A stretch of DNA of 64,000 bases from Candidatus Bathyarchaeia archaeon (GCA_050015395.1 JBEKBM010000014.1:16029-80028); one strand, 5' to 3'. Positions 9,077-44,405 are shown, numbered from the stretch's first letter. Numbers and translations: made by a program. The notes: a model not told the origin generated them from the letters alone.

Positions 9077-9457
9077 TTAAGAGGTCGCGTTGCCAAGGTT
9101 TTTTCGAATGTCCTTGATTTTACCAAGCATCTTCGTTTCAGCACTTTCAGCCGGCAAAGCGTCATTGGAGCCTCCTGCTGGGCTAATGGTTACTTCTAGG
9201 ATTGTGCCTGTGAGGTTTTTTCCTTCTCTTTTCTTGAGGATTTCCATGGTTAGTTTTGGGATTGTTAGGCGGCCGTCGCTGGTCATTTTTGCGAGGAAGG
9301 TTTCTTCTTCGTAGTTTTCGGAGTCGAATACTCTTACGTTTGCTTTTAGGAGTTCGCCCTGCTCCATTTTGTAGCGCCAGCGTAGAAGATTTGGAATTTG
9401 GGTGCGGTTTCGGTTTTCCAGTTTCGCTTTGAATGATGCAAGCTCAGTTAGAGGCAT
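9077..9457 (-). CDS. Tandem AbrB/SpoVT (MraZ-like) swapped-hairpin DNA-binding protein, paralog 1
   Basis: Two AbrB-like units: FKAKLENRNRTQIPNLLRWRYKMEQGELLKANV and FLAKMTSDGRLTIPK...GTILEVTI. Paralog of the gene at 25234-25515. Confidence 0.75.
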   Translation of the reverse strand: MPLTELASFKAKLENRNRTQIPNLLRWRYKMEQGELLKANVRVFDSENYEEETFLAKMTSDGRLTIPKLTMEILKKREGKNLTGTILEVTISPAGGSNDALPAESAETKMLGKIKDIRKNLGNATS

Positions 9458-9460
9458 GTT

Positions 9461-9510
9461 ATCTTACCCTTTTTTACCCTTAATTACCCTTAAATTCCCA
9501 AAAATACCCA
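9461..9510 (-). promoter_or_regulatory. 10-bp-phased array (5 units, TACCC; GGGTA on the gene strand) abutting the AbrB start codon
   Basis: atcttaccct tttttaccct taattaccct taaattccca aaaataccca. Confidence 0.7.
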
Positions 9511-9524
9511 TAGAAAAACCAAAA

Positions 9525-9560
9525 TTTAAACCCTGCCCCAAAAAAGCAACCCAAAACACA
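9525..9560 (-). repeat. Dispersed conserved motif, copy 1 (partial)
   Basis: AAACCCTGCCCCAAAAAAGCAACCCAAAACA matches the copies at 25631-25690, 41344-41402 and 44311-44370. Confidence 0.75.
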
Positions 9561-9636
9561 AACACCACAAAGGAGGAGGGATAGTTTTTTACAACCAATC
9601 TTCCATAAACATAAACTCGAATGTAGACAAGCACTA

Positions 9637-9855
9637 ATGGAGGGCTTAGAGTTGAGTTATAACAGGGGCATCTTAGAAATCCTTGAAGAACTATTGAAAG
9701 AAATCCGCGAAGAACTACAAGAAATCAAGCTACGATACAAAGAGCTAGTAGATAAACTGGTTCCTATCGAAGAGGCAACGGAAGAAGAAAAGAAAGCGAT
9801 AGAAGAAAAAGACGAAATAGCTGATGAAAAAGAATTAATGCATACTTTAGGCTAA
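9637..9855 (+). CDS. Small acidic coiled-coil protein, possible orphan antitoxin
   Basis: 72 aa; the LVPIEEATEEEKKAIEE pattern resembles archaeal RelB-type antitoxins; no toxin ORF follows. Confidence 0.5.
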   Translation: MEGLELSYNRGILEILEELLKEIREELQEIKLRYKELVDKLVPIEEATEEEKKAIEEKDEIADEKELMHTLG

Positions 9856-9906
9856 AGTAGAGAAAAAGCCTACAGTTAACATTTCTCAAAACTAATTTGC
9901 CAAATT

Positions 9907-11175
9907 TTAGGTTTGGAGTTTGAATCTGAGCATTGCTGCGATGCCGCCGAAAGCGTTCTTTAGCATTTGCCCCTCTTCCGTTTCACCCGAAATAATCTCT
10001 ACATCCGTGTTTGACATTTCCGCCAGTTCAGCTAAATCGTCTATGACATCTTTTTTCTCCAACACTGTCATGGATGGCGCGTTGCATTTTGGGCAAGGTT
10101 TCCCGACTAAGCTTTGCTCAAAACTGGTTACCTCTTGGCTTTTGAGGGTGTGCTGTTCTTCGTAGCCGCAAGCGCTGCATTTAACCGTGACACGAACCAA
10201 ATCCAAACTCTCAGACATGATGAGCAAGCGGACTGCTCCTGCCTGCAGAAGCCGCCTCACTTCAGCTTCGCCGTAAGTTATCATTCCAGTGTCATGGCCA
10301 ACTTCGTAGAGGAATTTTTGCATGATTTCTTTTTCTTCGATGTAGCGGACTTTGCGCATGATTTCAGGCGCTTTAGCCACTACTTCTTTAACGCCTTGCT
10401 CTTCCACGTAAGCAGTGTCAACGACATCAAGAATCTTGTTTTTCAGCTGGTAGTTGAGGTAATCGCCTTTCTCGAAATCGTATTTTGTCGGTCCAGGTCC
10501 ACCTAAAATAATACCTTTTAACGTGTCAATGGGCAGGAAAGCTTCGTTCGCGTGCACGCCTACTCGGGTAAAATACTCGTTTAGCTGCATGTCCCTTAAA
10601 CGTTCATATCGCCTAGCTGATTGCCCACCTGCCTTAGTTTTGCCCGTAACACCAGAGTGCATTTGCCTAACAATCTCTAGGTGTTTGCCCTGCAGGGTTG
10701 CAATGGTAGCGTTATTGGCGTCCACCAGCAGAATGCCGTAGGTTTCTTTCTCCCGCAACATCTCCTGCAGATACTCGGTGTGGAACCGTGAATCACAACG
10801 ATAAAGAAAAATCCTAATCGGCTCAGGCGGAACAATCACGTAGGATTCCATGCGTTCGGTACCTGGCGCGCCACCTTCCTGCAGAAGAGCACCAGTAAAA
10901 ATCACTATGCCCTTTTCGCCCGGATCCTTGAAGAGCTTGAGTTTCTGCTGGGCTTTAGTGATAGCATCTAGGACGTTTTTGCGTGTAACGTTTGATTTAA
11001 TGTTGCTGGCTGTTCCATACTCGTTACGCAGAAGGTTTAAGGCATCGCTGATTTGTTTGCCCGGCGGAACATAGACAGTGATGAGTTCAGTGTGGCTGCC
11101 CTCTTTGCTGGCTAGGGTGTTGAGTGTTTTTCTTAGCCTGAATAGTTCAAGGGAAGATTTTTTCGCTGTACTCAA
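9907..11175 (-). CDS. prf1: Peptide chain release factor aRF1
   Basis: NIKS, YRCDSRF and GGQS motifs; C-terminal CxxC...CxxC insertion. Confidence 0.97.
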   Translation of the reverse strand: MSTAKKSSLELFRLRKTLNTLASKEGSHTELITVYVPPGKQISDALNLLRNEYGTASNIKSNVTRKNVLDAITKAQQKLKLFKDPGEKGIVIFTGALLQEGGAPGTERMESYVIVPPEPIRIFLYRCDSRFHTEYLQEMLREKETYGILLVDANNATIATLQGKHLEIVRQMHSGVTGKTKAGGQSARRYERLRDMQLNEYFTRVGVHANEAFLPIDTLKGIILGGPGPTKYDFEKGDYLNYQLKNKILDVVDTAYVEEQGVKEVVAKAPEIMRKVRYIEEKEIMQKFLYEVGHDTGMITYGEAEVRRLLQAGAVRLLIMSESLDLVRVTVKCSACGYEEQHTLKSQEVTSFEQSLVGKPCPKCNAPSMTVLEKKDVIDDLAELAEMSNTDVEIISGETEEGQMLKNAFGGIAAMLRFKLQT

Positions 11176-11259
11176 ATAACTTCACTAATTACTACGTTTA
11201 ATCGGATAACTAACGCTAAAAAGAATCAAATAAAAGTTCCGTATAAAAAACGGAAACTG

Positions 11260-12276
11260 TTACAATTTCGGCTTGACTGGCGGTGTCTGCACTGGCTCTG
11301 GAGCTGGTGCACCTATGGCGTCTCTGAGGAAAGCCTTGAACGGACCTAGCTTCCCACCATAATTACCAGACGAAATCTTAACGACACCAGGCACGGCGAT
11401 TGCTGCTGTCACGCCTTCTTTGATGCCCTTTTTGACTGCGTCCAAGGTTAAGCCGTTCATGACTATTTCGTAAACGCTTTGAACGCCTTCTGGAACAACG
11501 GAATCGGGCACAAGCGTGCGTAAGGTTGGGCAGTAAGGATGATTGGTTGAAGCCTTCATCTTGTACTTGAGTGAGCCAGCTTTGCTTCCTGATCGGCAAA
11601 TTCCGCCTGGAAACGGCATAATTACATCAGGAGCGTTTGCGCGAATTGCGTCTGCCGCCGCCTCAGCCGATTTAAGCCCTGATTGCTGGTCTTCTGCGAA
11701 AATCATAAAGTTGCCGCCTGCAACAGCTTCCATGGCGCCGAAGCCGTTTTCAACAAAGAAGTTGCCTTCCATAACTGGGATTTTCCAGCATTTTCTTCCG
11801 CCAACCATGGCTTTTTTCTGGAAGCCATCACCAAAATAGCGCAGGCTGTTGCCAACGTCTAATGTTCGTTTAGTTCGGTCCATGCCGTTGAAGGCTGCAG
11901 TTGTCGGGCAAGTCATAATGCATTGGCCGATGCGCTCCATAAGCTGGTGCTTGAGTTCAAAGCGGTCACGATTATAAATTTGAATAAGCATTCCCGGACG
12001 CTTATCAGGGGTCTGGTCTGCTGGAACAGGACGTTCGATTGCTGCTTCTGCAGGTGCCATGATGACGCTTGTGGCGAAACCTGTGGTTACGCTTGCGGCG
12101 ATTTGTGCCCATTTCTCATTTTGAGCCGTGATTAAAATTCTTCCTGCCCAAAGAGTGAACATTTCTGCAAAAGTATCTTGAACCTTCACGACGTTTCCTC
12201 TGGGTGATTTTACGAGGAACATTTTTTCTTTATCGTCATAGCTTTGGATTTCAAGCGTGTTAGTGTTTGATGACAT
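11260..12276 (-). CDS. ftr: Formylmethanofuran-tetrahydromethanopterin N-formyltransferase
   Basis: DTFAEMF, TGFATSVI, TPDKRPG, RIGQCIMTCPTT, GGICRSGSK, ASTNHPYCPTL and SSGNYGGKLG motifs. Start placed at the second ATG (12276). Confidence 0.95.
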   Translation of the reverse strand: MSSNTNTLEIQSYDDKEKMFLVKSPRGNVVKVQDTFAEMFTLWAGRILITAQNEKWAQIAASVTTGFATSVIMAPAEAAIERPVPADQTPDKRPGMLIQIYNRDRFELKHQLMERIGQCIMTCPTTAAFNGMDRTKRTLDVGNSLRYFGDGFQKKAMVGGRKCWKIPVMEGNFFVENGFGAMEAVAGGNFMIFAEDQQSGLKSAEAAADAIRANAPDVIMPFPGGICRSGSKAGSLKYKMKASTNHPYCPTLRTLVPDSVVPEGVQSVYEIVMNGLTLDAVKKGIKEGVTAAIAVPGVVKISSGNYGGKLGPFKAFLRDAIGAPAPEPVQTPPVKPKL

Positions 12277-12485
12277 GAAAGGGACCTTGCAGTTCAGTTG
12301 GGAATTGTATAATTTAAGAGTTTTCGTGAATGACCAAGGTTTTCTCAATTTCAAAGGCTAATTTCAAACTGCAAAACGCAACTTTAGAGGCTTGCTTCAG
12401 GAAGCCTTAAAGGACTGGGCGTGTGAAAAAGCTATGGCCTCCCTTATCCTTCTCTCTCCACTTAGCCGCGAGTTTCGGAAAAATA

Positions 12486-12713
12486 GTATGTATTTAGCTC
12501 TCGTTTTTTGTTTTAGGGTATTTGTGTGTGCTCAGCCTACCTACCCGGTCTACTAGATGCTTCTAATATGCTTCAAATATGATTCAACATGGATGTGCAT
12601 AGAACGAAGACCGCGCACTTTGCATGCAGAACGGTGCTTTTCAACATAGAAAAGTCTGTTTTTTGATGTAGAAAAAAGCACTAAAGAAGAAAAAACAAGA
12701 GCTAAATATACAC
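12486..12713. mobile_element. 228-bp MITE, copy 1, with terminal inverted repeats and 8-bp target-site duplication
   Basis: Imperfect TIRs GTATGTATTTAGCTCTCGTTTTTT ... AAAAAACAAGAGCTAAATATACAC; flanked by GAAAAATA at 12478-12485 and 12714-12721; second copy at 18785-19012. Confidence 0.85.
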
Positions 12714-13069
12714 GAAAAATAAAATGTAAAGGCTTTGCGAATGGAGCGTAGTAAGAGATTTTGGCATACTTGCTCCTCATGTAAACCAGATATCCAACGA
12801 GTCCACACCCATTATGGAATCTTGGTCGGTATTTTCGCAGAAGTATTTCTGAATCGCCTTTTTGCGTCTGATGACAGACATTACTCACACGCGCGCGACC
12901 ATGCGCGTTATAAAAATGGATTTTTGCCGGCATATATCTGATGCTTTTTTGGCTGGACGGCTGATGTTTTGAGTAATAGAGGCTGAAAAACAAGGAAAAT
13001 AGCCCACGCAGTTTAGGGCTTTAAAAGAGAAAAAGGAGGGTAGATATAGATATATAATTTAGGAGTGTG

Positions 13070-16778: not shown

Positions 16779-16781
16779 CTT

Positions 16782-23441: not shown

Positions 23442-24365
23442 TCAGGTTAGTCCGTCTATGGCTTTCTTCAGGAACGTTTTTAGTTTTTCAAGGAATTTGT
23501 AGAAGTCCTTCTCGTCAATATCCTTAAGCAGGAGCCCTTTCTCTTCACCCCAAGTGAAGGGTGCTGACGTCACAATGTCCTTCTTTTCCTCAAAATTCTT
23601 CCTGTACCGCTCATAGAGACTAAACGTAAACTTTGTCTTTTCCACACTACAGACAGAGACATCTTCCAACTTAATCCCGAAGGTCTTGCAGATTAAGTAA
23701 ACATCAAGGAAATCGCGCGCCTTTAGGCCTTTGCGCGTAAGTATTGCCCGGATCTTCTCGCACAGAATCTCGCGAATATCATACACATCGAAACAGATTT
23801 TCTGAGTATATTCCTTATACTCTGGAAACAACAAAATGAGCTCTTCCTGCTTCTCAGACAGCAGACTCCCTAACTCCGCACTCTTCAAAGGGAAAAGCAT
23901 TGTTTCTACGAAGTTCATCTGAACTTTCAAGAAGCTCTTGCGCCCAAAAACTTCAGATTCATACCAGACCTTGAACGTGCAGGTCTTATTTCCGCCCCCA
24001 AGCTCAACGTAGTTTCTGTTGGCCTTCGCGCATTTGAAGTCCAGCCCACGCTTCTTTGCTATCTCTTCAAAAACTTCTCCAATGTCGTCTATGATCTTTG
24101 AGAGTTGCTTTCGTATTTCCTTCTGGGACTTGCCTTCGAAGTCTTTCTGGTTTTTCCATGTGAAGTCGATATCTTCAGAGAACCTGAAATAGTCCAGATA
24201 GCATTTTGCCAGGCAGGTTCCGCCTTTGAAAGCAAAGTTCTCGCGGAAGAAAGGGTTTCTTGAAAGTTCAAAGAGCACCTGATGTAGGATGAGGTCTTTC
24301 TCTATCAAATCGGTCCTTTTGACATGCTGAACTCTGGCTACCTCGTTCACAAAGTCTTTTCTCAT
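23442..24365 (-). CDS. abiEii: AbiEii-family nucleotidyltransferase toxin (type IV TA)
   Basis: IEKD, FKGGTCL, RFSEDIDF, EKIRA and ARDFLDV motifs. Confidence 0.9.
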   Translation of the reverse strand: MRKDFVNEVARVQHVKRTDLIEKDLILHQVLFELSRNPFFRENFAFKGGTCLAKCYLDYFRFSEDIDFTWKNQKDFEGKSQKEIRKQLSKIIDDIGEVFEEIAKKRGLDFKCAKANRNYVELGGGNKTCTFKVWYESEVFGRKSFLKVQMNFVETMLFPLKSAELGSLLSEKQEELILLFPEYKEYTQKICFDVYDIREILCEKIRAILTRKGLKARDFLDVYLICKTFGIKLEDVSVCSVEKTKFTFSLYERYRKNFEEKKDIVTSAPFTWGEEKGLLLKDIDEKDFYKFLEKLKTFLKKAIDGLT

Positions 24366-24997
24366 CCCATCACCTCGTCGGCAATCTCCCTGACTGTATT
24401 TGGATAGTTAACGGCGTATTTTCGGATTTTTTCGCCTGATAAATCCCGGGCCCACTCGGAAACATCGAGGATAATCTTTTCCTTGGGAACTCCGTTGTAT
24501 CTCCACGTGTAAATGAAGTCTAGGATCGTCTTTTCAGCATCCGAATATCTCAGTTCATTTGCGGTTATTCCGAAGTTTAGGAGCTTGGGTGCAAGTTTGA
24601 TGAATCTGAATTTGTAGCCAGCTATGGTCATTGGTTTTGGGCGGAACAGCCGATCGTTAATCACGTAGTCAACTGCAAAGTGCTCATGTGTTACGTTGTT
24701 CAGTTTCAGTGCTGTGTACAATCCGAAGTACCAGTTCTTGACGCCTTTGAGTTCGAGGCCTTTGGCGACGAGTTCCAGATGGCTGTATCGGGATTTGCCA
24801 AGCTTGATTTCGTCTAGGGGTTTGACGTAGAAGATTCCTTTGAAGATTCGCGTGAGGTAACCACGGTATACGAAATATTTGATCGCTTTTTCGTAGTTTA
24901 GATCCATCGCTGTGCAGTACTGCTTTAGCTCAATTGAAGTCACAAACTCTTTTTCGTCTATGCGGAGCTTCTTGAGTAAAAGACTCGTCTTCCCCAT
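24362..24997 (-). CDS. abiEi: AbiEi-family antitoxin
   Basis: N-terminal wHTH (GYLTRIFKGIFY), WYFGLYTAL and SDAEKTILD; 4-bp overlap with the toxin gene. Confidence 0.8.
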   Translation of the reverse strand: MGKTSLLLKKLRIDEKEFVTSIELKQYCTAMDLNYEKAIKYFVYRGYLTRIFKGIFYVKPLDEIKLGKSRYSHLELVAKGLELKGVKNWYFGLYTALKLNNVTHEHFAVDYVINDRLFRPKPMTIAGYKFRFIKLAPKLLNFGITANELRYSDAEKTILDFIYTWRYNGVPKEKIILDVSEWARDLSGEKIRKYAVNYPNTVREIADEVMG

Positions 24998-25233: not shown

Positions 25234-25515
25234 TTACGCTGGTTCAAGCATTACCTCTAACGCGTAGCCGGATAGGCGCGTCTTTTTTTCATCTTCAAAG
25301 AGGCTTAGCACCAACTTTGGAACATATATACGTCCATCCTTACGCATCTTTGCATAAAAAAATTGCCAGCCCTTATGCATCCCCAAAAAATTTACACCCA
25401 CCTTCAACACTTGACCACTTTCCATTTTGAACCGCCACCGAATCACCTTTGGAACTTGCACTTTATTGAAACTCTGAAGCATCGTAGTAAAGGTAACTTT
25501 CTCAGTTAACGGCAT
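25234..25515 (-). CDS. Tandem AbrB/SpoVT (MraZ-like) protein, paralog 2
   Basis: MPLTEKVTFTTMLQSFNKVQVPKVIRWRFKMESGQVLKV and FYAKMRKDGRIYVPK...LEVMLEPA. Start set at the MPLTE ATG shared with paralog 1. Confidence 0.75.
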   Translation of the reverse strand: MPLTEKVTFTTMLQSFNKVQVPKVIRWRFKMESGQVLKVGVNFLGMHKGWQFFYAKMRKDGRIYVPKLVLSLFEDEKKTRLSGYALEVMLEPA

Positions 25516-25550: not shown

Positions 25551-25630
25551 TTAGAGTCGGGAAGAGTCGCGAGCAGTCGCAGAAAGTCGCAGGGAGTCGC
25601 AGAAGGTCGCGTATAGTCGCTAAAAGTCGC
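25551..25630 (-). promoter_or_regulatory. 10-bp-phased array, 8 units (GTCGC; GCGAC on the gene strand)
   Basis: Eight consecutive 10-mers end in GTCGG (once) or GTCGC (seven times); the array lies just upstream of a TATA-like TTAAGTATAA. Confidence 0.85.
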
Positions 25631-25690
25631 AGCCTGCAAACACTTCAAACCCTGAATCAAAACAGCAACCCAAAACAACCTGAACAAAAT
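25631..25690 (-). repeat. Dispersed conserved motif, copy 2
   Basis: CCTGCAAACACTTCAAACCCTGAATCAAAACAGCAACCCAAAACAACCTGAACAAAAT. Confidence 0.85.
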
Positions 25691-25731
25691 TCAGGGATAA
25701 GAGAAAAATTAACTCAGAAGCATCCTAAGGT

Positions 25732-28700
25732 TTACCAAAGTTTCCAGGGCAAGTCATCCATGTACTCGTTTAATGAGCGGATTGAGTTGCCGTTTTGATC
25801 TTTCTGCTTTAACACTTCCACTAGCGCAGCGGCTAACTGCAAGTTCGTTATGACTGGCACGTTGAATTCTACTGCTTGGCGTCGGATGATGTAGCCGTCG
25901 GTTAAAATTTCTGAGATACTATTCTGCCTATTAGCTATGGGCACGTTAATTACTAAGTCGATTTTGCGCTCCTGCAAGTAATCCAGAATGTTAGGGTTAG
26001 CTTGAGCTTCCTTAACCTTATGGAGCACAGTAGCATTAACGCCCGCTTCATTGAGCACCTTAGCGGTGTGTGCAGTTGCGTAGATTTTGAAGCCCATTTC
26101 AGCAAAAGCCTTTGCTATTGGCACAACTCGCTTTTTACGTTCTTCATTGCCACCAACACTTATGAATACTGTACCGTTTTTTGGTGGAATGTTGAATTCT
26201 GCAGACTGCAATGCCTTGGAGAAAGCGTCTGAGAAGTTTTCTCCTAAACATGCTACCTCTCCAGTGCTGAGCATTTCAACTCCGAGAACTGGGTCAGCAC
26301 CGCTTAAGCGCATAAAGCTGAACTGCGGAACCTTAACACCAACGTGAGGTGCAACAGTCATCGGTGACAGCTTAACGCCATCAATTTTTTTGCCTAGCAT
26401 CGCCAAAGTAGCTAGCTCAATGAGGTTTATTCCGCGTGTTTTGCTGACAAACGGCATTGAACGTGATGCTCGCAGATTGCATTCAATGACATTAACTACG
26501 TCATCTTTAACAAGGTATTGGATATTGTAAGGTCCGTGAATTTTGAGAGCCTTAACTATTCTTTGTGTGCAATCCTCAATCTTCTTCTGAACCTCAACCT
26601 TTAATGCTTGAGGCGGGATGGTCATGGTTGCGTCGCCGCTGTGGACGCCAGCGTTTTCAACATGCTCCATTATAGCGCCAATTAGCACGGTTTCGCCGTC
26701 AGAAACGCCGTCTACCTCAACTTCTTTGGCACGATTTATGAATTTGCTGATAACTACCGGGTGATCAGGTGAAACTTTCGCAGCTAAGTTAAGGAAATTC
26801 TCAAGTGATGTCTCGTTGTAAGCTACACGCATCGCTGAACCGGATAGCACGTAGCTTGGGCGTACAATAACTGGGTAACCGATTTTTTCTGCAAACCGTT
26901 TTGCATCGGCGATTGATAGGAGCTTGCTCCAGCTAGGCTGAGAAATTCCCAACTGGTCTAAAAGTGCGCTAAACTTTGAGCGGTCTTCAGCCAAATCAAC
27001 GTTTTCAGCGGAAGTACCGAGCAGTTTGACTCCCGCGTTAGAGAGTTTCATGGCTAAATTGTTTGGAATTTGACCGCCGACGCTTGTGATGACGCCTAAG
27101 GGATTCTCTTTCTCGTAAATATCTAGAATTCGTTCAATTGTGAGTTCTTCAAAGTACAGTTTGTCAGAAACATCGTAGTCAGTGGAGACTGTTTCAGGGT
27201 TGTAGTTAACCATTATTGCTTCTTGAATACCGTTTTTCTTGAGCGCCCAAATTGTGTTAACGCCACACCAGTCAAACTCCACGCTTGAGCCTATTCTGAA
27301 GACACCTGCGCCTAACACGATAACTTTGCTTGTGTTACTTGTTAATTCAATGTCATCTTCATCTCCACCGTAAGTCAGGTAGAGATAGTTTGTTTTCGCC
27401 GGCCATTCAGCTGCCAACGTATCAATCTGCTTAACTACTGGCAGAATGTTTGCACTTTTTCTAAACGTTCTAATCGTAGATTCATTAGTGCATTGGCACT
27501 TGGCGATTTGCTCATCAGAGAATCCTAAGCGTTTGGCTTCACGAATCACTTCCGCTGCGTAGCCCTCTGCAAGGTTTAGCTGTCGCAGATCTGTCTCCAT
27601 GTTAATAATATTTTGAATCTTATGCAGGAAAAATGGGTCGACACCGCTTAAGCGGTAGATTTCCGCGATGGGTATGCCCATTTTTAAGGCTTTAACAATC
27701 GTGTAGAGCCTCTCGTCGGTTGGGTTCGCAAGCACATCACGTATTCTCTCTTCAGGCTCAGGCTCTGAATCTTCAGGGTTGCAAACTAAACCTATCTTGC
27801 CAGTGTCCAACATGCGCACAGCTTTCTGCAATGCCTCTTCAAAGCAGCGGCCAATAGCCATCACTTCCCCAACTGAACGCATCTGCGGACCGATGTGGCG
27901 GTCGGCGTTTTTGAATTTCTGTAAGTCCCAGCGTGGAATTTTCACGGTTATGTAGTCTAAGGCTGGTTCAAAACATGCTGTGGTGACTTCTGTTACTTTG
28001 TTTATGAGTTCTGGAAGCAAATAGCCCAAGGTTAGTTTTGTTGCTATGTAAGCCAAGGGGTAACCAGTTACTTTGCTTGCGAGAGCCGAACTTCTGGACA
28101 TGCGTGAATTAACTTCGATTACACGATACTCTTCTGATTTCGCATTCAATGCCCATTGGATGTTGCATTCGCCAACAATGCCTAAGCTGCGTATAGCGTT
28201 TATTGAAGTTGACCGAATAAGGTGGTACTCACGATTTGATAGGGTTTGCGAGGGAGCTACGACTATTGAGTCTCCAGTGTGGATACCCATGGGGTCGAAG
28301 TTTTCCATGTTGCAGACGGTTAAGCAGTTGTCTGCGTAGTCGCGCATGACTTCATATTCGACTTCTTTCCAGTGCCCAACGTACTCTTCAATGAGGATTT
28401 GGCTTATTCGGCTTTGAGCTAAACCACGAGTTGCTATCGTCTTTAATTCTTCAGGGTTGTGAGCTACGCCTGCACCTTTGCCGCCAAGAGTATACGCAAC
28501 CCTAATCATGACTGGATAACCAATCTCATCAGCAACATCCAAAGCTTGCTTGACACTTGTTGCTGACTTGCTTTTTAATGGAGGCACGCCTGCTTTGAGC
28601 ATTGCTTGACGGAAACGTTCACGGTCGCCCGTATCCTCTATCGCCTGAACAGGCGTACCTAAAACCTTAACATTGTACTTTTGCAGGATGCCTTTTTTCT

Positions 28701-29007
28701 CAAGTTCCAAACCGCAGTTTAATGCGGTTTGTCCACCGAAGCCCAAGAGGATGCCGTCGGGGCGTTCTTTTTCAATAACTTTCTCGACATATTCAGGTGT
28801 GACTGGAAGAAGATACACTTTTCCTGACAACCGCGGGTCAGTCTGAATAGTGGCAATGTTAGGATTAACCAGGACGGTTTCTATGCCCTCTTCCCTCAGA
28901 GCTTTAAGGCATTGGCTTCCCGAGTAGTCAAATTCGGCTGCTTCACCGATTTTTATGGCGCCGCTGCCAAGAACTAGCACTTTCTTTATCCAGTCAAACT
29001 TTGGCAT
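25732..29007 (-). CDS. carB: Carbamoyl-phosphate synthase large subunit
   Basis: GSGAIKIGEAAEFDYSG, two ATP-grasp domains and a C-terminal MGS domain, 1091 aa. Confidence 0.98.
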   Translation of the reverse strand: MPKFDWIKKVLVLGSGAIKIGEAAEFDYSGSQCLKALREEGIETVLVNPNIATIQTDPRLSGKVYLLPVTPEYVEKVIEKERPDGILLGFGGQTALNCGLELEKKGILQKYNVKVLGTPVQAIEDTGDRERFRQAMLKAGVPPLKSKSATSVKQALDVADEIGYPVMIRVAYTLGGKGAGVAHNPEELKTIATRGLAQSRISQILIEEYVGHWKEVEYEVMRDYADNCLTVCNMENFDPMGIHTGDSIVVAPSQTLSNREYHLIRSTSINAIRSLGIVGECNIQWALNAKSEEYRVIEVNSRMSRSSALASKVTGYPLAYIATKLTLGYLLPELINKVTEVTTACFEPALDYITVKIPRWDLQKFKNADRHIGPQMRSVGEVMAIGRCFEEALQKAVRMLDTGKIGLVCNPEDSEPEPEERIRDVLANPTDERLYTIVKALKMGIPIAEIYRLSGVDPFFLHKIQNIINMETDLRQLNLAEGYAAEVIREAKRLGFSDEQIAKCQCTNESTIRTFRKSANILPVVKQIDTLAAEWPAKTNYLYLTYGGDEDDIELTSNTSKVIVLGAGVFRIGSSVEFDWCGVNTIWALKKNGIQEAIMVNYNPETVSTDYDVSDKLYFEELTIERILDIYEKENPLGVITSVGGQIPNNLAMKLSNAGVKLLGTSAENVDLAEDRSKFSALLDQLGISQPSWSKLLSIADAKRFAEKIGYPVIVRPSYVLSGSAMRVAYNETSLENFLNLAAKVSPDHPVVISKFINRAKEVEVDGVSDGETVLIGAIMEHVENAGVHSGDATMTIPPQALKVEVQKKIEDCTQRIVKALKIHGPYNIQYLVKDDVVNVIECNLRASRSMPFVSKTRGINLIELATLAMLGKKIDGVKLSPMTVAPHVGVKVPQFSFMRLSGADPVLGVEMLSTGEVACLGENFSDAFSKALQSAEFNIPPKNGTVFISVGGNEERKKRVVPIAKAFAEMGFKIYATAHTAKVLNEAGVNATVLHKVKEAQANPNILDYLQERKIDLVINVPIANRQNSISEILTDGYIIRRQAVEFNVPVITNLQLAAALVEVLKQKDQNGNSIRSLNEYMDDLPWKLW

Positions 29008-37467: not shown

Positions 37468-37523
37468 CGCTTTTCCAACATACTCATGGCAAATTTTATT
37501 AGAATCTACTGTGGGATATTTAT

Positions 37524-38254: not shown

Positions 38255-38509
38255 TAAAGCAAATTGAGGTAACCTCTTAGCATAGTCAAAGTCAAGCCCA
38301 ACAGCAAAGTTATCAACTATTAAGCCGTCTGCGGTAGTTCCGAAAGTGTCTGGCACCTGCTTGGGTATAACTTTTTTTACTTGCTAAGCATAGTTGCAAG
38401 CCAGTTTAAGGCTGCTTGAAAGCCTTCAACGACGCCTAAGAGCGTTTTACTTGCATAAGCCTGAGCAATCCAAGCCAAGAAACCACTCAAACTTTACCGC
38501 CAGCCCAAC

Positions 38510-38535
38510 TGTACCGTCAAAATGTACCGTCAAAA
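38510..38535. repeat. 13-bp perfect tandem repeat
   Basis: TGTACCGTCAAAA x2. Confidence 0.6.
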
Positions 38536-38626
38536 CGTATATAACTACGCCTACCTGGTAGGCAGTAGAGCACACAAAGCTTAACCCACTTACGGATCTA
38601 CTGGTCTGCGACTCAGATCATCAAAT

Positions 38627-40702
38627 CTAATGTTTTTCTTGTTTTACTCCGAGTTGTTCAAGCATCGACATTGGGCTGTTGGTTGGCGGTAGGCAGGTTT
38701 GGTCTCGGCATATGTAGGCGGTTGCTTTGCCTTCGATCTGCTGGTAGCCTAAGCCTGCTTTGCTGGGGTGCTTAAGTGCGATAACGGTTGATGGTAGATA
38801 ATGCTTCCTTAGTGCATTTAACATGTCTGATGTGTCTTTTTGCTTTAAGTCGCCTACTAAGATTACGCTGTAAGATGGGCCTATTAGAAAATCAGTTGCA
38901 GAAAGGAAGAACGTGCACGCTTCAGGCGCGCCCTCTATTTCTTGTGCGAATGTTTTGGTCATTTGGGCTGCCAATGTGTTGTATGTGGGTTCGTCTGCTA
39001 AGCGGCTGAGCCATAGCAGATCCTGTAGCGCTACTGAGTTGCCTGAGGGAACCGCACCATCATAGAGTTGCTTTATTTTTGGCATGGCAGCTTCGCTGTT
39101 TTGAGTTTGGTAGAAACCGCCGTTTTTGTCATCCCAAAACTTAGTCACCATAGTCTTCGTTAAAGCGGATGCGGCTTGGAGATATTTGTCTTCTAAGGTT
39201 GCCTGGTAGAGTTCGATTAGCCCATATACGAAGAAGGCGTAGTCGTCCAAGAAGCCTTCCACGGCAGTTTCGCCTTTTGCGTAGCGGTGATATAGCACGT
39301 CATCTTTGAGCATTTGGTTTAGGATGAAGTCTGCCGTTTTCTTTGCAGCTTCCACGTACTTCGCTTCGTTGAGAACGTTGCCTGCTTTTGCTAACGCTGA
39401 GATCATTAAGCCGTTCCAGTCGGTTAACACTTTATCATCTATCGCTGGAGGCGCCCGTTTTTTTCTTGCCTCAAAAAGTGCTTCTCTTATGCTGTGCAGG
39501 CGGGTGATGAGTTCTTGGAGTGTTAAGCCTTTGTATGGTGCAAGTTCCTCTAAGGGTTCGGCGATGTGGAGTATGTTTTTGCCCTTTGGGTGCCCAGAAG
39601 CCTCAGTAAAGTTGCCTTCTGGCTTTAGCCCGTAGATGTGGACTGCCAATTCAGCGTCGGCAGGAGGCAGCGTGTCGAGCACTTCGTCTATGGTCCAGAG
39701 GTAGAATTTGCCTTCTTCGCCTTCTGTGTCAGCATCTTGCGCTGAGTAAAAGCCCCCGTTGAGCGACGCTAAATCGCGTAATGCGTAGTCTAAGGTTTCT
39801 TTTGCTGCAAGTGCATAGCGTCTGGCGCCTGTTGCCTGAAAAGCTTCTGTGTAAGCTATTACCATTAGGGCTTGGTCGTAGAGCATTTTTTCGAAGTGCG
39901 GAACCAGCCATTTCTCATCGGTGCTGTATCGATGGAAGCCGAAGCCTATCTGGTCGTATATGCCGCCTAGGCGCATTTGCGTGAGCGTTTTTTCAACTAA
40001 GGATAGAGCGTTTTTTTGGCCGGTTCTCGCATAATAGCGTAGCAGAAACAGGAGGTTGTGGGGTCTTGGGAATTTGGGTGCAGTGCCAAAGCCGCCGTTT
40101 TCCTTGTCAAAATCCAGTGTTAAGCGGTCGTAGGCGTCTTTTAGGGCTTCTTTGCCGAGTCCTTTTTGAGGTGTTCTTTTTTCCATTGCTTCTATGCGGC
40201 TTTTGATGTCTGCTCCCACAATTTCTAATTGCGAGCGTTGCAGTTTCCATATTTGCATGACTTGAGGAACAAGATCCAACATGCCCGTCAAGCCTCGACC
40301 ACTGTGTTTAGGTATATAGCTTGCGGCAAAAAAAGGGTTAAGCTTAGGCGTCATGAGTATGTTGAGTGGCCAACCGCAGTTTCTGCCCATAGCTTGACAA
40401 ACAGCCATATACGCTGCGTCTAAGTCGGGCCTTTCTTCACGGTCAACCTTAATGCACACAAACGATTGGTTTAGCAGGTCTGCGACTTGCTGGTCGCTGA
40501 AGCATTCCTCTTCCATGACGTGGCACCAGTGGCAACTGGCGTAGCCTATGCTGAGGAAAATGGGTTTGTCTTCAGCTTTAGCTTTATCTAGGGCTTCTTG
40601 ACCCCATGGGTACCAGTCTGCTGGGTTGTAAGCGTGCTGGAGAAGATAAGGACTTTTTTCGTTAATCAGCCTGTTTGGCTTGTTTTCTTGTTTTGGCTGC
40701 AA
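38627..40702 (-). CDS. Thioredoxin-domain DUF255/YyaL (SPATA20-like) protein
   Basis: [44 protein letters not shown] and PHFEKMLYD. Confidence 0.93.
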
Positions 40703-40846
40703 AAATTGGAGACCTTCCTGTTACAATTATTACTGTGCGCGTTTTTATTAAACTGTTCGAGTGAGAAAATTCCACGTAAGATAAATTTTTGTTTTTGTCG
40801 TCGTTGAAGTGTGTGCTCTAAAGTTCTATAGAGTAAAAGACGGTTT

Positions 40847-41179
40847 TTATTTTTTTGTTAAGGTTTGGGGGTCGATTGGGTTGAGTTTTCCGTTTTTGCC
40901 TATGGCATATAAGTGAAAGTCGTATTCTTTACAGTAGTTTTTAAAATCTCTGTATTGTGTTTTGTTGCCTTCAAAATCTTTTTCGCTTACTATTTGGCAA
41001 ATTCGTTTTAGGCAACCTTTATGTGCCTCAACATCCGGAATGACACCGCCGATCTCGGAAGGTTTTTCCCAGCCTTGGGTGTTCGCCTTTACCAGCCAGT
41101 TGTCTTTTTTGAGGTCTTCAGCAATAGTTCTTACGCATTCGTCATGAGTGTTTGGTTCTTCAGATTTTTTCTTTGTCAC
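40847..41179 (-). CDS. Hypothetical protein (possible degenerate PD-(D/E)XK fold)
   Basis: HDECVRTIAEDL...IPDVEAHKG; 110 aa, GTG start after AGGTG. Confidence 0.6.
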   Translation of the reverse strand: MTKKKSEEPNTHDECVRTIAEDLKKDNWLVKANTQGWEKPSEIGGVIPDVEAHKGCLKRICQIVSEKDFEGNKTQYRDFKNYCKEYDFHLYAIGKNGKLNPIDPQTLTKK

Positions 41180-41343
41180 TGTCTACACCTATTGATTGTT
41201 GTTGTGAGTGTTTATTTAAAGATTTAAACAGCCAACTTGCCTTTTTCCGAATTAAGCTGCAAAAAGGGCTTTCCTACTTCCATAATGAGTCTACCGTTTT
41301 ATTAAACTGTTATAGTTAGTGAGAAAATTCAAGGGCAGACTAA

Positions 41344-41515
41344 ATTTTGTTCTAGTTGTTTTGGGTTGCTGTTTTGATTCAGGGTTTGAAGTGTTTGCAG
41401 GCTGCGACTTTTAGCGACTGTACGCGACCTTCTGCGACTCCCTGCGACTTTCTGCGACTGCTCGCGACTCTTCCCGACTCTAAACGCTTAAGTACAAGTG
41501 TTAAAAGCAAGAATT
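41344..41515 (+). repeat. Dispersed motif copy 3 plus GCGAC 10-bp-phased array (near-identical inverted copy of about 25520-25690)
   Basis: Reverse complement of the 25520-25690 region with few mismatches; 8 phased units at 41401-41480. Confidence 0.9.
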
Positions 41516-41518
41516 TAT

Positions 41519-41594
41519 CTTCCCTTAACCGGGAAGGTTATCTTTACAGTAATCTTCAAAGCTTCAATAAAGTGTAAATTCCAAAGGTGATTCG
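41519..41594 (+). pseudogene. 5' remnant of tandem-AbrB paralog 2
   Basis: cccttaaccgggaaggttatctttac...ttcaataaagtgTAAattccaaaggtgattcg aligns to the first ~25 codons of 25515-25440, with the ATG lost, an indel and a premature TAA. Confidence 0.75.
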
Positions 41595-41660
41595 TTTGCA
41601 GGTTACGTCATTATTCGTCAAAAATCGTCAAAATTCGTCAATAAACGTCAATGGGCGTCA
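41594..41660 (+). promoter_or_regulatory. Second 10-bp-phased array (CGTCA, 6 units) preceded by the motif end GTTTGCAGG
   Basis: ggttacgtca ttattcgtca aaaatcgtca aaattcgtca ataaacgtca atgggcgtca. Confidence 0.8.
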
Positions 41661-41797
41661 AAAAATTCTATATGCCGATGCCCATAATTTTGGTTTTGTA
41701 ACTTTGAAGGTTTTAGCTTGGCGGCGAGAGGGTGAGAATGCCTGAAGGCGCTGTAAATTTGATGATGTTTCTTTTTTCTTGGGGTTAGCGATGATAT

Positions 41798-42217
41798 TTA
41801 GGGAGATAGTAGTGTTGTTATGGTTTGAACGTCAACGTATTTCTGAGCTTTCGCTTTGAGTTGTTTATCTTCGGTTATGAGTTTGAGGTCTTTTTCTTTG
41901 GCAAAATAGATGTAGCTGGAATCATAAAAGGAGAGTTTCTCGTTTTTTGCGATTTCGAGGATTTTCTGAAAGGTTACTGCTTCGCTTGTTATCCAGTCAG
42001 TCTTCATTAGGATAGTCTGTGCGACCTTTTCCAGTGTCTTGGAATCTTCGGGCGTTAGGAACTTTGTTAGGGTGCTTTCCTTCCAAATCGCGTTTCCAAC
42101 TTCGTAATAGGTCAAATCAAGAACTATGGAGTCTTGCAAGCATTCGATCACACTTTTGGCATTGGACTTCTTGATTAGAAACATGAATGCGCTTGCGTCG
42201 AGTAGGTAGCGCTTCAT
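41798..42217 (-). CDS. vapC: PIN-domain toxin (VapC)
   Basis: YLLDASAF, YYEVGNAIW, SFYDSSYI and LITEDKQL. Confidence 0.9.
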   Translation of the reverse strand: MKRYLLDASAFMFLIKKSNAKSVIECLQDSIVLDLTYYEVGNAIWKESTLTKFLTPEDSKTLEKVAQTILMKTDWITSEAVTFQKILEIAKNEKLSFYDSSYIYFAKEKDLKLITEDKQLKAKAQKYVDVQTITTLLSP

Positions 42218-42438
42218 CGCTGGTCTCTTGATTCTCTTATGGCTCTTACGATTTCGTCGTCAGGGATTTTATCTAAGATAATTTTCATTTCGTTAATCGC
42301 TTGGGCTAGTTCTGCGTCTTCTCGCTTCTTGACTTCGTCTTCTAGAGCTTCTCTGACGGTTTTGCTGACGTTTATTTTGTGCTTTCTTATCTTTTCTTTC
42401 AGGGACTTTTTAACCCTGACGGCGATTATCTCTGACAT
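42214..42438 (-). CDS. vapB: RHH antitoxin (VapB)
   Basis: IIAVRVKKSLKEKI...INVSKTVREAL; 4-bp overlap with vapC. Confidence 0.85.
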   Translation of the reverse strand: MSEIIAVRVKKSLKEKIRKHKINVSKTVREALEDEVKKREDAELAQAINEMKIILDKIPDDEIVRAIRESRDQR

Positions 42439-42579
42439 ACGCCATATTGTATAACAATTTTTGTATATAACAGTATTGCTGAGTAGTTTAGAAGCAGAAT
42501 TATAACCATTTTACACCAATTCGGAACAAGTCAGCACGCGCTTATTAGTCTGTTTCCGGGATTATTATGAAGAGGAAAG

Positions 42580-43617
42580 TTGACGCTTCTGGATAAAAAA
42601 CTCGTGGTCGTTGGTGCGGGCGCTATTGGGTCAAGTGTGGTTGGGTGGGTCGCGCCTCAATATGAAAGGTTATGGTTGTTGGCTCGAGGCGAAAGCGCAG
42701 CAACGATTAAAAATCAAGGGTTGAAATTTTACCTTAAAGGTGAAGAGGCTAAGGCTGTTCCTATATCAGTCAAGGTCATCGAGTCATTAAGTGAGATCTC
42801 CCTCCCTGACATAATAATTGTCGCCGTGAAAAACTATGACCTTGATGCGACAGCGCGGATGTTGCGGGAGCAGCTGGGGACTCATCAGCCTGTCGTTGTA
42901 GCGCTGCAAAATGGTGTTGAAAATCAGCGGGTTCTTCCCAAATATTTTACGAAGGTAATTTATGGCGTGGTGTGCTTCAATGCGTGGCGGGATGCTCCGG
43001 GGAGGGTGGGGCACCAGAAGCGTGGATATATAATTCTGGGCACGCCTGCGAATGATCTGCAGTCTGAGCAGCGGGAGGTTGCAGCTATTCTTCGGCGGGG
43101 GTTGGATTGTTCGCTCACGGACCGTTTGGAAGATGCGGTTCATTGTAAGTTGGCGGTTAACCTTACGAATGTTTTGACCACTCTTGTCGGTTTCCCGAAC
43201 GTCCCTGACAGGTCCTTCAGTGAGGTTGCACGAATGTCGGCAAGAGTTATTTGGGAAGGGATTCAGGTTCTTCAGGCAGCGGGGTTCAAGGAGCATGAGC
43301 TCGGCAGTATCCCTTCTTGGAATACGATTAGAATGAGCGTTAGGCTTCCAGCATCAGTCATTAAAGTTTTTTACAGATTTAGTGTGCGGGAAGAACTTGG
43401 CATGAATAGCACGGCGCAGGATATTTTCGCGGGGAAAGCCACTACTGAACTTGAATCTTTAAATGGGTACATGTTGAGTCTTGCCCAGAAAGCGGGGGTG
43501 CCAATGCCCATCAACCAGACCATTTATGAAATCGCGAAGGAACGGTTTAGTCCGGATTTCGAGCCGATGGCGGAGAAGGAGTTGTGGGCTGCGATTCAAA
43601 ATCGACTTAAACGGTAA
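42580..43617 (+). CDS. Ketopantoate reductase (PanE/ApbA) family protein
   Basis: GAGAIG, VAVKNYD, LQNGV, KLAVN and S..QD...TELESLNG motifs. Confidence 0.85.
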   Translation: MTLLDKKLVVVGAGAIGSSVVGWVAPQYERLWLLARGESAATIKNQGLKFYLKGEEAKAVPISVKVIESLSEISLPDIIIVAVKNYDLDATARMLREQLGTHQPVVVALQNGVENQRVLPKYFTKVIYGVVCFNAWRDAPGRVGHQKRGYIILGTPANDLQSEQREVAAILRRGLDCSLTDRLEDAVHCKLAVNLTNVLTTLVGFPNVPDRSFSEVARMSARVIWEGIQVLQAAGFKEHELGSIPSWNTIRMSVRLPASVIKVFYRFSVREELGMNSTAQDIFAGKATTELESLNGYMLSLAQKAGVPMPINQTIYEIAKERFSPDFEPMAEKELWAAIQNRLKR

Positions 43618-43744
43618 GGCAGTCGGCTGAGCTGAATATTCTTTAATTTTTCTATTTTTTATTCAATGCAAGCTTGAAAGGATTGTTTGGTTCTCTGAGG
43701 AAGTTAAGTTAATATAGCCGAGGGAAATAATTGCTTTCGTCTTC

Positions 43745-43782
43745 GGTAGTTTCCGTATATAACCTACCTTAAAAAACCCGGG
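43745..43782 (+). ncRNA. Candidate preQ1/preQ0 class I riboswitch aptamer
   Basis: GGUAG-UUUCCGUAUAUAAC-CUACC-UUAAAAAA-CCCGGG: 5-bp P1, loop starting U and ending AC, 8-nt A-rich tail then C. It lies between a TATA-like box (43708-43715) and queT. Confidence 0.6.
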
Positions 43783-43791
43783 TTGAATGAA

Positions 43792-44283
43792 ATGAGATTA
43801 AATACTAAAAAATTGGCAGTTGTTACTGTTTTTGCCGCTTTGTATGCGGTTGGAGTTATTTTTTTGGCGCCGATAAGTTTTGGGATCGGTCAAGTGAGGG
43901 TTGCTGATGCGTTGTTGCCGTTGTCGATGATTTTTGGGCTCCCAAGCGCCTTGGGCTTTAGTTTGGGCTGCATAGTTTCTAATGTTTATGGCGGGCTTGG
44001 AATGATTGATATTGTTGGCGGTGCAGGTGCAAATCTTGTTGCTTGCACTTTAGCTTGGTATATTGGACGTAAGGGGAGGGGTGCTCAGCGGTTTCTGGGA
44101 ACTGTTGCAGAAACAGTAGCCGTTGGTTTGATTGTTGGAGGATACCTCTCACTGATATTTCAGGTTCCTGTGGAAATCAGTCTCTTAGGATTATTTATTG
44201 GCGAAACGATAGCGATAAACCTTATAGGTTTTCCCCTGGAAGAAGCTATAAGGCGTAGCAAAATTTTTAGAAAATACAGCTAG
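43792..44283 (+). CDS. queT: QueT family queuosine-precursor transporter (ECF S component)
   Basis: AALYA...PISFG..QVRVADAL...G..LGC.VSN...G..D...G signature. Start is the ATG at 43792 or the TTG at 43783. Confidence 0.88.
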   Translation: MRLNTKKLAVVTVFAALYAVGVIFLAPISFGIGQVRVADALLPLSMIFGLPSALGFSLGCIVSNVYGGLGMIDIVGGAGANLVACTLAWYIGRKGRGAQRFLGTVAETVAVGLIVGGYLSLIFQVPVEISLLGLFIGETIAINLIGFPLEEAIRRSKIFRKYS

Positions 44284-44310
44284 AAGCTTAATTGTTCGAG
44301 AGAGAATGGG

Positions 44311-44405
44311 ATTTTGTTCAGGTTGTTTTGGGTTGCTTTTTTGGGGCAGGACTTGACGTGTTTGCAGGTTACGTCTAGATTCGATTCTACGCGTCAGGGG
44401 GCGTC
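44311..44405 (+). repeat. Dispersed motif copy 4 plus degenerate CGTC 10-bp-phased array
   Basis: ATTTTGTTCAGGTTGTTTTGGGTTGCTTTTTTGGGGCAGG...GTGTTTGCAGGTTACGTC; CGTC recurs at 44372, 44392 and 44402. Confidence 0.8.

Follow-up and report, generated by a model that had tools for sequence, protein, structure and literature searches.

A 64,000-nt stretch of a Candidatus Bathyarchaeia archaeon genome (GCA_050015395.1, JBEKBM010000014.1:16029–80028; hereafter the window) carries a cassette in which a conserved noncoding motif is followed by a row of short boxes repeated every 10 bp and, in the intact copies, by a gene for a small protein beginning with MPLTE. On balance we favour reading this cassette family as self-repressing regulators, each with a private operator in the style of bacterial MraZ. 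A cassette would have three parts: a shared control region of ~60–120 nt with the core GTTTTGGGTTGCTTTTTTG and a 3′ B recognition element (BRE)/TATA promoter (GCTTAAAT or GCTTGAAT); 3–10 boxes at an exact 10-bp period; and the gene, encoding a single-chain barrel of 92–126 aa resembling PhS018 of Pyrococcus horikoshii. The evidence comes from the sequence architecture, its conservation, its co-occurrence with the gene and the fold of the product.

The host genome (G000 in the comparisons below) spans 2.59 Mb in 42 contigs with 42.6% G+C. Peat and wetland metagenome runs contain the window DNA, and there was no RNA run among the sequencing runs found to contain it. The cassettes of the window and their remnants, counted from its first letter, are the following:

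9077–9457, minus strand: MPLTE gene 1 (P0001), 126 aa, by translation; two AbrB-like halves forming a PhS018-like barrel, then a C-terminal helix
9461–9510, minus strand: phased array, TACCC ×4 + TTCCC, on the gene strand GGGTA ×5 (one of them GGGAA); exact 10-bp period, 5 boxes, 4 exact
9511–9601, minus strand: motif copy, T-rich box GTTTTGGGTTGCTTTTTTGG then TATA-like GTTTAAAT; nhmmer match C14:25629–25551 (window 9601–9523), exact 14-mer at 9545–9558
25234–25515, minus strand: MPLTE gene 2, 93 aa, by translation; hmmsearch E 1.5e-37
25551–25630, minus strand: phased array, GTCGC ×7 + GTCGG, on the gene strand GCGAC ×8 (7 exact plus CCGAC); direct reading and period scan
25620–25693, minus strand: motif copy; nhmmer match C14:41721–41648
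41305–41415, plus strand: motif copy, inverted duplicate of the copy at 25620–25693; nhmmer match C14:57333–57443
41401–41480, plus strand: duplicate of the phased array, GCGAC ×7 + CCGAC (×8); direct reading and period scan
41481–41599, plus strand: decayed proximal promoter and MPLTE 5′ remnant, inverted copy of the second locus; repeat 25434–25479/41554–41599 at 87%
41590–41660, plus strand: 3′ motif fragment (TTTGCAGGTTA) joined to a CGTCA ×6 array; direct reading and period scan (C14:57634–57704)
44273–44382, plus strand: orphan motif copy immediately 3′ of the queT stop; nhmmer match C14:60301–60410, ortholog comparison
44371–44405, plus strand: degenerate CGTC(A) boxes, 2 in phase; direct reading and box count

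The initial annotation had placed the motif at four sites of the window, and this is borne out: its core 14-mer, TGTTTTGGGTTGCT, has exact matches at 9545–9558(−), 25664–25677(−), 41357–41370(+) and 44324–44337(+), four against 0.09 expected, and none of 100 shuffles yielded four or more. Extended copies can be aligned across 83 nt at 77–80% identity in a repeat comparison within the window. Each of the four is followed 3′, on its own strand, by boxes in 10-bp phase. That the pentamers differ from copy to copy, as had been claimed, is agreed upon by direct reading and by Tandem Repeats Finder, which delimits period-10 tracts at 9464–9510, 25575–25632, 41402–41459 and 41606–41652; the row at 44371–44405 is indeed degenerate, with two phased boxes alone. 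Translations and repeat alignment likewise support the description of two arrays leading into MPLTE genes (126 and 93 aa) and a third into a remnant of the same family. The picture of a dispersed module in four copies stood for the window but not in scope, as the genome holds 38 copies of an element of ~120 nt and three genes.

The GGGTA array ends 3 nt 5′ of the P0001 start codon. The gene at 25234–25515 is apparently leaderless and has its own TATA-like box ~24–31 nt upstream, and the motif copy behind it begins 39 nt past the stop of carB (25732–29007; carB by Pfam). A 208-nt inverted repeat (25487–25694/41340–41547, 93% identity) joins this locus to the third one, where an inverted copy of the second gene's promoter and first ~28 codons is preserved at 87–93% identity. 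There the start codon is gone, an in-frame stop is present, and the reading frame ends at about codon 28, cut by the 3′ end of a further motif copy bearing the CGTCA array (box starts at 41606, 41616, 41626, 41636, 41646 and 41656), which has no intact gene 3′ of it. Metagenome contigs of four DNA runs end within the two duplicated arrays (positions 25569 and 41465). A recurrent contig joint, 40769→44314, has just 27 letters on its shorter side and resembles another motif copy, and is therefore silent on inversion or deletion.

Considering all copies, the conserved unit is ~120 nt long. In about 20 copies a T-run and a small hairpin (GCTTTTTGTGG-N9-CCACAAATAGTAGGGTAGGTCTATAGG) come first, the best-conserved block is GTTTTGGGTTGCTTTTTTG (1.4–1.9 bits per position over 92 copies), and the 3′ end reads TTTAGGGCTTGAAT...TTTGCAGGTT. 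The block lies just upstream of a TATA-like box: the 3′ half of the motif has GCTTAAAT, GTTTAAAT or GCTTGAAT at a fixed place. The pattern [CGT]TT[TA]AA[AT] is found in 27 of 63 gene-linked copies and its relaxed form [CGT]TT[TAG]AA[ATG] in 37, 28 of them exactly 17 nt before the motif end (GCAGG + 2 nt), our anchor for registering the arrays. The strict pattern also occurs 32–37 nt before 7 of the 39 tRNA genes of the genome, often preceded by A-rich bases, versus 64 of 2000 random 60-mers. Given this fixed position and the recurrence before tRNA genes, the 3′ half looks like the organism's ordinary BRE/TATA promoter. The proposal of paralog-specific boxes thus needs trimming: the boxes do differ while the motif stays similar, but the ~60-bp motif, with its promoter-like 3′ half, does not belong to the code.

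The TATA placement predicts a transcription start near box 2, with box 1 between TATA and start and the remaining boxes in the 5′ leader. The median distance from anchor to start codon is 87 nt, and a ribosome-binding site of the GGAG/GGTG type stands 4–18 nt ahead of the start codon in 38 of 64 genes. A different layout is seen in the GCGAC/GCGTT clade, which includes the gene at 25234–25515: a second TATA-like box, GCTTAAGTATAAG, sits between the array and the apparently leaderless start. As for GTTTTGGGTTGCTTTTTTG itself, a site for a common factor and a T-run terminator or insulator are both guesses. A terminator role for the motif was dropped in the absence of a clear orientation rule for flanking open reading frames (ORFs), which share the motif's orientation in 24 (upstream ORF) and 18 (downstream ORF) of 38 copies. 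A structured RNA was also discarded: RNAalifold on 92 motif copies returned no consensus structure on either strand, Rfam held no family for the window at gathering thresholds nor, with E allowed up to 1, for six motif loci, and a sub-threshold match to Flavo-1 was taken as chance.

Registered on the motif end, all arrays fall in the same phase, with the row starting 12 nt after the TATA-like box and comprising 3–10 boxes per cassette. In 53 of 60 loci the third base of the 10-bp unit is a G, and agreement within arrays is 0.81–0.97 at positions 1–6 versus 0.66–0.70 at positions 7–10. Judged by these frequencies, the unit is a 6-bp core NNGNNN, its G near-invariant, plus a 4-bp spacer. A uniform core beside a drifting spacer matches selection for a repeated binding site and not simple slippage. 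Most cassettes open their row with a GCGTC- or GAGTC-like box, independently of the boxes that follow. Counting as a strict array one 5-mer that fills at least 4 of 5 phased slots, the genome has 11 arrays at period 10 versus 0, 1, 0 and 0 at periods 8, 11, 13 and 14, an excess that sets the 10-bp period apart from chance. Seven of the 11 have a strong motif copy no more than 190 nt away, three abut weak partial motif matches and one is unrelated.

The arrays were also expected to accompany this gene family elsewhere, and they do. A profile of 27 homologues finds the MPLTE gene in 37 of 61 sampled genomes of the genus; a single genome can have as many as 12 matches, and many matches are fragments. 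We gathered 30 loci from this search, 55 further chosen regions (matches starting at profile position ≤2 and extending to about position 92 or further) and the genome's own loci, and kept those matched over their full length and preceded by no less than 150 nt of sequence, leaving 80 genes. The motif is present within 300 nt upstream (nhmmer, E < 1e-3) in 69 of these 80; at least four phased boxes precede 61 and at least three precede 75, a density of four or more being reached by 2 of 400 random 155-nt windows of this genome. A 26-mer of the motif, allowed 3 mismatches at most and giving no match in reversed form in 60 of the 61 genomes, is present in 31 of 37 genomes with the gene versus 1 of 24 without, the latter a single 3-mismatch match; the genomes being kin, we take this as a pattern and do not treat it as a statistical test. 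Counting copies by the 14-mer with one mismatch proved misleading, with 0 of 30 inspected matches in four gene-less genomes corresponding to the element. Copies of the element number 0–42 per genome.

Outside the genus, the gene occurs in 17 of 201 genomes of the class and 11 of 87 genera, and of 8 loci inspected by eye in other genera, at least 6 have 3–6 phased boxes behind a diverged motif. A narrow peptide-pattern search, which reaches close relatives only, returned 49 loci, 48 labelled Bathyarchaeia or Bathyarchaeota and one Acidoferrum. This last homologue (L219, DASPTR010000056.1) is on a contig labelled Candidatus Acidoferrum (Acidobacteriota) and reflects either a binning error or horizontal transfer. 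In one clade (PLTERVSFKTRLQRGNRVQVPKYVRW...; L021 at G012:C1:6120–9395, G058:C6, G045:C10) the gene recurs every ~1.5 kb in clusters among PIN and ribbon-helix-helix toxin–antitoxin pairs, with ~3 CGTC boxes and no recognisable motif.

In the MPLTE protein, two AbrB-like halves of one chain make up a barrel of the PhS018 type (cradle-loop barrel group); it is not a member of the MraZ or AbrB sequence families. A profile of the 27 homologues searched against PDB with hmmsearch matched one solved structure, PhS018 (2glw_A, E 1.6e-7, residues 7–74), with a weak match to Sso7c4 (5itm, E 0.65). The AlphaFold2 model of P0001 has a mean predicted local distance difference test score of 82.3, with residues 1–95 mostly above 87, and consists of two beta-beta-alpha-beta halves, to which the 126-aa form adds a disordered linker and a C-terminal helix. 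Foldseek ranks 2glw at the top (E 1.9e-5, TM 0.79 normalised to target) and MraZ chains second (E 2e-3, TM 0.35–0.41). With VIA-align, 2glw reaches Z 11.9 (root mean square deviation 2.1, 89 of 92 residues), 2d9r Z 10.1 and MraZ 9r4j_B Z 5.4 (24% identity over 72 residues), generic flavin-reductase-type barrels being at Z 5–7. Residues F54, D61, G62, R63, P67 and K68 are invariant in the 27 homologues (D61-G62-R63-x3-P67-K68). In the model, the pseudo-symmetric hairpin loops 13–18 and 58–63 may correspond to the DNA-reading arginine loops of AbrB-type proteins.

Two AbrB folds had been announced for these proteins. Two AbrB-like halves are there, but a Pfam AbrB or MraZ domain is not: neither family is matched in either window protein at E up to 1. 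TIGR01439 (SpoVT/AbrB) matches P0118 alone, at E 4e-4 and 19.9 bits versus a cut-off of 28.3, so that neither PF04014 nor TIGR01439 has a window-protein match above its curated cut-off. The MraZ likeness proposed on the same occasion survives in the 10-bp box arrangement, which is that of MraZ promoters; in structure the closest match is PhS018, and the MraZ score falls within the range of unrelated barrels.

Box cores are highly diverse. We counted 42 distinct 6-mer cores in 59 loci, for example AAGTCA, AAGTAC, TAGACA, ATGTGT, ATGCAA, AAGATA, AAGGT, GCGACT, GCGTT, CCGTT and GGGTA, and several differing cores coexist in single genomes; in one of them (G055), 9 genes carry 8 cores. In protein pairs of 35–45% identity the 45-nt pre-array motif is still 72% identical (shuffled background 58%), and core positions 4–6 are at 33%, about random, whereas in pairs above 85% identity the values are 93% and 86%. 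A cassette 3′ of eRF1 is syntenic in at least four genomes with GGGTA, TGGTA or AAGGT boxes depending on the genome, and therefore at least part of the diversification took place in situ.

Protein and boxes may change together. Among 24 non-overlapping nearest-neighbour pairs, with core change defined as a difference at 2 or more of 6 positions, residues 13–20 (loop 1) differ at a mean of 2.89 positions in the 9 core-changed pairs versus 0.93 in the 15 same-core pairs, and loop 1 takes 10.9% versus 4.5% of all protein changes. The core changed in 4 of 5 pairs with a change at residue 18 versus 5 of 19 without (one-sided Fisher ~0.047, by hand). K18 goes with GCGAC, and T18 or A18 with GCGTT or CCGTT, in pairs 78–86% identical.

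Motif copies extend far beyond the genes. With an nhmmer motif model, 38 copies pass E < 1e-5 across the 2.59 Mb of the genome, most of them lacking an MPLTE gene; of the three intact genes, contig 2 has one and the window the other two, and contig 10 retains a short N-terminal remnant. Among 41 copies whose 3′ end is available, at least four boxes follow in 15, three in 8 and two or fewer in 18. Boxes of the class AAAAG(G/A)T are found at the contig-2 gene and at ~12 orphan copies; the other classes are GCGAC (3 copies), TGCGTT (2), CCGTTC (1), CGTCA (3) and GGGTA, the latter at P0001 alone. Arrays of classes that have no intact cognate gene in the genome adjoin decayed promoters or gene stubs and represent dead cassettes.

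Comparison with relatives shows that orphan copies come and go. The copy after queT (43783–44283) is present, among nine genomes compared, only in G000 and, truncated, in its closest relative G019; the locus lacks the motif in the seven others, of which five read beyond the gene end (G003, G042, G071, G050, G063) and three (G003, G042, G071) have a PadR-like gene 3′ of queT instead. Similarly, on contig 36 the spacer between msrB and a cupin-like gene holds a ~190-nt insert (hairpin, motif and short AAAGA array) in G000, G062 and also G016, and the insert is absent from G019, G004, G003, G071, G042 and G013, closer genomes included, where the spacer is 45–60 nt. The one alignment inspected for the contig 36 insertion revealed neither terminal inverted repeats nor target duplications, and the right border of the element is not conserved between motif copies. 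In G050, at least nine copies make up a sub-family in which the motif is surrounded by three scattered GTTGCGACTTT sites. The control region thus behaves as its own module akin to miniature inverted-repeat transposable elements (MITEs), limited to genomes carrying the gene family, and the best reading of most orphan copies is that they are MITE-like insertions or decayed cassettes. A link to TnpB/IS605 was rejected, as neither of the two full TnpB genes of the genome is near a motif copy.

In the favoured reading of the cassettes as self-repressing regulators, every box would hold one barrel and the barrels would line up along a single helix face, in the way MraZ occupies its GTG(G/T) boxes. 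The row spans the predicted transcription start and the 5′ leader, so its occupancy would repress the protein's own gene. Cognate specificity would have diversified as the loop-1 hairpin of the first half (residues 13–20, especially 18) shifts with the core, and the shared motif would be read by common factors (TBP/TFB, and another for the T-rich box) and not by the paralogues. The ~35 gene-less copies would be MITE-like control-region insertions or decayed cassettes, and those keeping AAAAGG-type boxes could be extra sites for the contig-2 paralogue.

Several observations weigh against this reading. Motif copies outnumber MPLTE genes by ~10:1 in this genome and many lack arrays (18 of 41 with two or fewer boxes here, and arrays in just 5 of 30 inspected copies in G050), and therefore the motif has a life of its own; orphan arrays also decay between genomes. 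In the GCGAC clade the array is upstream of the second TATA and not over the start, so that repression may not fit all clades. The residue-18 association is borderline, and the protein–box co-variation as a whole is suggestive, coming from a small sample confounded by shared descent. Neither Pfam, NCBIfam nor PHROGs gives a significant family for the two window proteins, and PhS018 itself is without demonstrated function, with DNA binding just predicted (PMC4333400).

The motif and its array could instead serve as the cis-acting site of some mobile or partitioned element, with the MPLTE protein as its adaptor in the manner of ParR/parC or omega. Dispersal to as many as 42 copies per genome, a sharply bordered presence or absence at two loci, out of step with relatedness, the synteny break at the motif after queT, the inverted duplicate flanking 15.6 kb and the toxin–antitoxin neighbours of cassettes (AbiEii; PIN + CcdA-like; also L021) would all suit such an element. 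On the other hand, ORF lists and Pfam show no ParA/ParM-type, Rep, integrase or transposase gene beside the genome's three cassettes, the two full TnpB genes are away from motif copies, no terminal inverted repeats or target duplications were seen at the contig 36 insertion, the eRF1-linked cassette was altered in place while syntenic in at least four genomes, and most orphan copies have no arrays; we regard this explanation as unlikely. The initial annotation had entertained a centromere- or iteron-like function, which is left without positive support by the lack of a partition ATPase, Rep, integrase or toxin gene accompanying the window cassettes; orphan copies do show insertion polymorphism. 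The source names given by the Joint Genome Institute (JGI) to homologues (PrlF/AbrB-type antitoxin, YhaV-PrlF) suggest one half of a toxin–antitoxin pair, AbrB-type domains being frequent in antitoxins and toxin–antitoxin genes lying nearby. Those toxin genes are, however, already paired with antitoxin-like partners of their own, no co-oriented, adjacent or overlapping partner ORF exists at 9077–9457 or 25234–25515, and a 92-aa protein that is entirely barrel has no toxin-binding tail, all of which makes an antitoxin highly improbable.

Control could also act on RNA, the array being transcribed as a 5′ leader whose repeated words the protein binds in a TRAP-like fashion to control translation or stability. 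The predicted start near box 2, which puts boxes 2 to n in the leader, the 87-nt median from anchor to start codon and the ribosome-binding sites of 38 of 64 genes would be in keeping with this. We nevertheless give it little credence: the GCGAC clade keeps a homogeneous row of 8 boxes upstream of its proximal TATA and of an apparently leaderless gene, an exact 10-nt period is one helical turn of DNA, the fold relatives AbrB, MazE and MraZ bind duplex DNA, and neither strand has a consensus RNA structure. Hardly more credible is an array with no specific protein partner, that is, slippage minisatellites or intrinsically bent A/T-phased DNA tuning the promoter. Many spacers are A- or T-tracts in helical phase, box number varies and orphan arrays decay, as expected from such DNA. 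Yet slippage would copy core and spacer equally, and cores with their near-invariant G outlast spacers within arrays; GCGAC arrays with C/T spacers are not A-tract DNA; arrays and motif are almost confined to genomes with the gene; and control periods yield at most one array each.

Among known systems, bacterial MraZ acts on the MraZ boxes of the dcw (division and cell wall) promoter. According to PMC12957436, its boxes are GTG(G/T) six nucleotides apart (AAAGTGT-N3 ×4 in M. genitalium) and are read through three basic residues of a cradle-like motif. The MPLTE cassettes share with it a predicted chain with two AbrB-like repeats, direct boxes in 10-bp phase upstream of the protein's own gene, an A-rich lead plus GT in the common cores AAGTC, AAGTG and AAGTA and, by analogy, autoregulation as the expected logic. 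Unlike MraZ, they have no Pfam MraZ match (PF02381/UPF0040) and a topology nearest to the PhS018 barrel; they are not the first gene of a dcw cluster but neighbour eRF1, carB, AbiEii and queT; they carry 3–10 boxes with dozens of cores instead of one conserved box, and many paralogues per genome; and their promoter is of the archaeal BRE/TATA kind.

PhS018 (2glw) likewise folds one chain into a barrel with two-fold pseudo-symmetry, each half being beta-alpha-beta, at ~25% identity to the MPLTE protein. We know of no operator array reported for it; it was originally described by Coles et al. in 2006. Two sources present it as a RIFT barrel with high two-fold symmetry (PMC11258233) and as an uncharacterised intermediate between double-psi and swapped-hairpin barrels, predicted to read DNA in the AbrB way (PMC4333400). 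With the swapped-hairpin domains of AbrB, SpoVT and MazE, Sso7c4 (5itm) included, the MPLTE protein has in common the GR-x-x-IP-K loop motif and hairpin loops with basic DNA-reading residues; those barrels are built from two chains and the MPLTE barrel from one, and their sites are usually loose or palindromic where the MPLTE cassettes have long rows of direct repeats. Such rows, at the promoter of a small protein's own gene, recall ParR-parC of plasmid R1 and omega of pSM19035, in which the protein cooperatively coats 7–11-bp direct repeats; these are ribbon-helix-helix proteins with partner NTPases, and there is no ParA/ParM/TubZ-type partner gene beside the cassettes. Orphan copies, at ~190–230 bp, are dispersed, intergenic, insertion-polymorphic and vary from 0 to 42 per genome like MITEs, from which they differ in having a promoter-like region shared with a gene family.

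We speculate further, and with clearly less confidence than for self-repression, that the family comprises dozens of mutually orthogonal regulator–operator pairs on a PhS018-like scaffold together with a strain-specific network of dispersed promoters. A few loop residues would set a 4–5-bp box code, read on rows with a 10-bp period, and MITE-like spread of the shared promoter module would let the proteins wire a fast-evolving promoter network. This would be the first function for PhS018-type proteins and a decipherable recognition code for AbrB/MraZ DNA reading. How AbrB-type proteins select their DNA has long resisted explanation, as the sites known for them show no clear consensus. The many closely related paralogues, with one row of identical boxes apiece, would offer natural matched protein–DNA pairs and, with candidate residues in one hairpin loop, make the code directly testable. 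The family would add an archaeal counterpart of MraZ-style control and may supply compact orthogonal repressor–operator parts, and the MITE-like spread of its promoter module would exemplify the movement of regulatory DNA in uncultured archaea. Relative to MraZ and AbrB autoregulators, the unusual traits would be the hyper-diversified box code, the shared promoter module and the MITE-like spread. We found no literature on this family or on phased arrays before PhS018-like genes in open full text, with supplements and subscription journals outside the search; a paper on HpaAB names AbrB in its references alone.

Some neighbours of the cassettes deserve mention. A 72-aa coiled-coil-like ORF lies at 9637–9855 on the opposite strand, between eRF1 and the P0001 cassette; as the cassette is directly 3′ of the eRF1 stop in relatives L012–L014, a stretch of ~330 nt around this ORF looks inserted. 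The toxin–antitoxin genes adjoining window cassettes are AbiEii (23442–24365) with an upstream 211-aa partner (region 23442–24997) and a PIN toxin (41798–42217) with a CcdA-like antitoxin (42214–42438).

Two other conserved sequences were seen next to orphan motif copies. An element that we call B has at least eight copies (C37:15960, C27:12885, C4:1994, C41:543, C20:36529, C23:6406, C10:2377 and C13, ~1.1 kb after 22820) with a conserved core of ~100–150 nt around CCTACCCC..GGTCTACTAGATGATCCTAATAGGC..CAAACATGA.TCAACATA. It is sometimes found 100–250 nt 3′ of orphan copies, behind a strong TATATAAAG box, and in two cases directly after the hairpin module with the motif absent; it is possibly a small RNA gene. 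At C22:46001, C6:84939, C6:112256 and C1:122058 the orphan motif is followed by a conserved ~60-nt sequence, GTGAGCCTGCAATGTTTAAAACCAAATTGCAAACAGGTAAATCGA..CTGTCCTAAATACACA, again behind a TATATAAAG box, which looks like another small transcript.

The window also holds a separate dispersed repeat of ~270 nt (38334–38604) that contains TGTACCGTCAAAA twice and then a TATA-like CGTATATAAC; at least eight more near-full copies are on other contigs at 82–95% identity, and its depth is ~5-fold in all four metagenome runs compared. Two direct repeat pairs are unrelated to the motif: 12486–12713/18785–19012 (228 nt, 96%) and 49378–49677/55525–55824 (300 nt, 82%).

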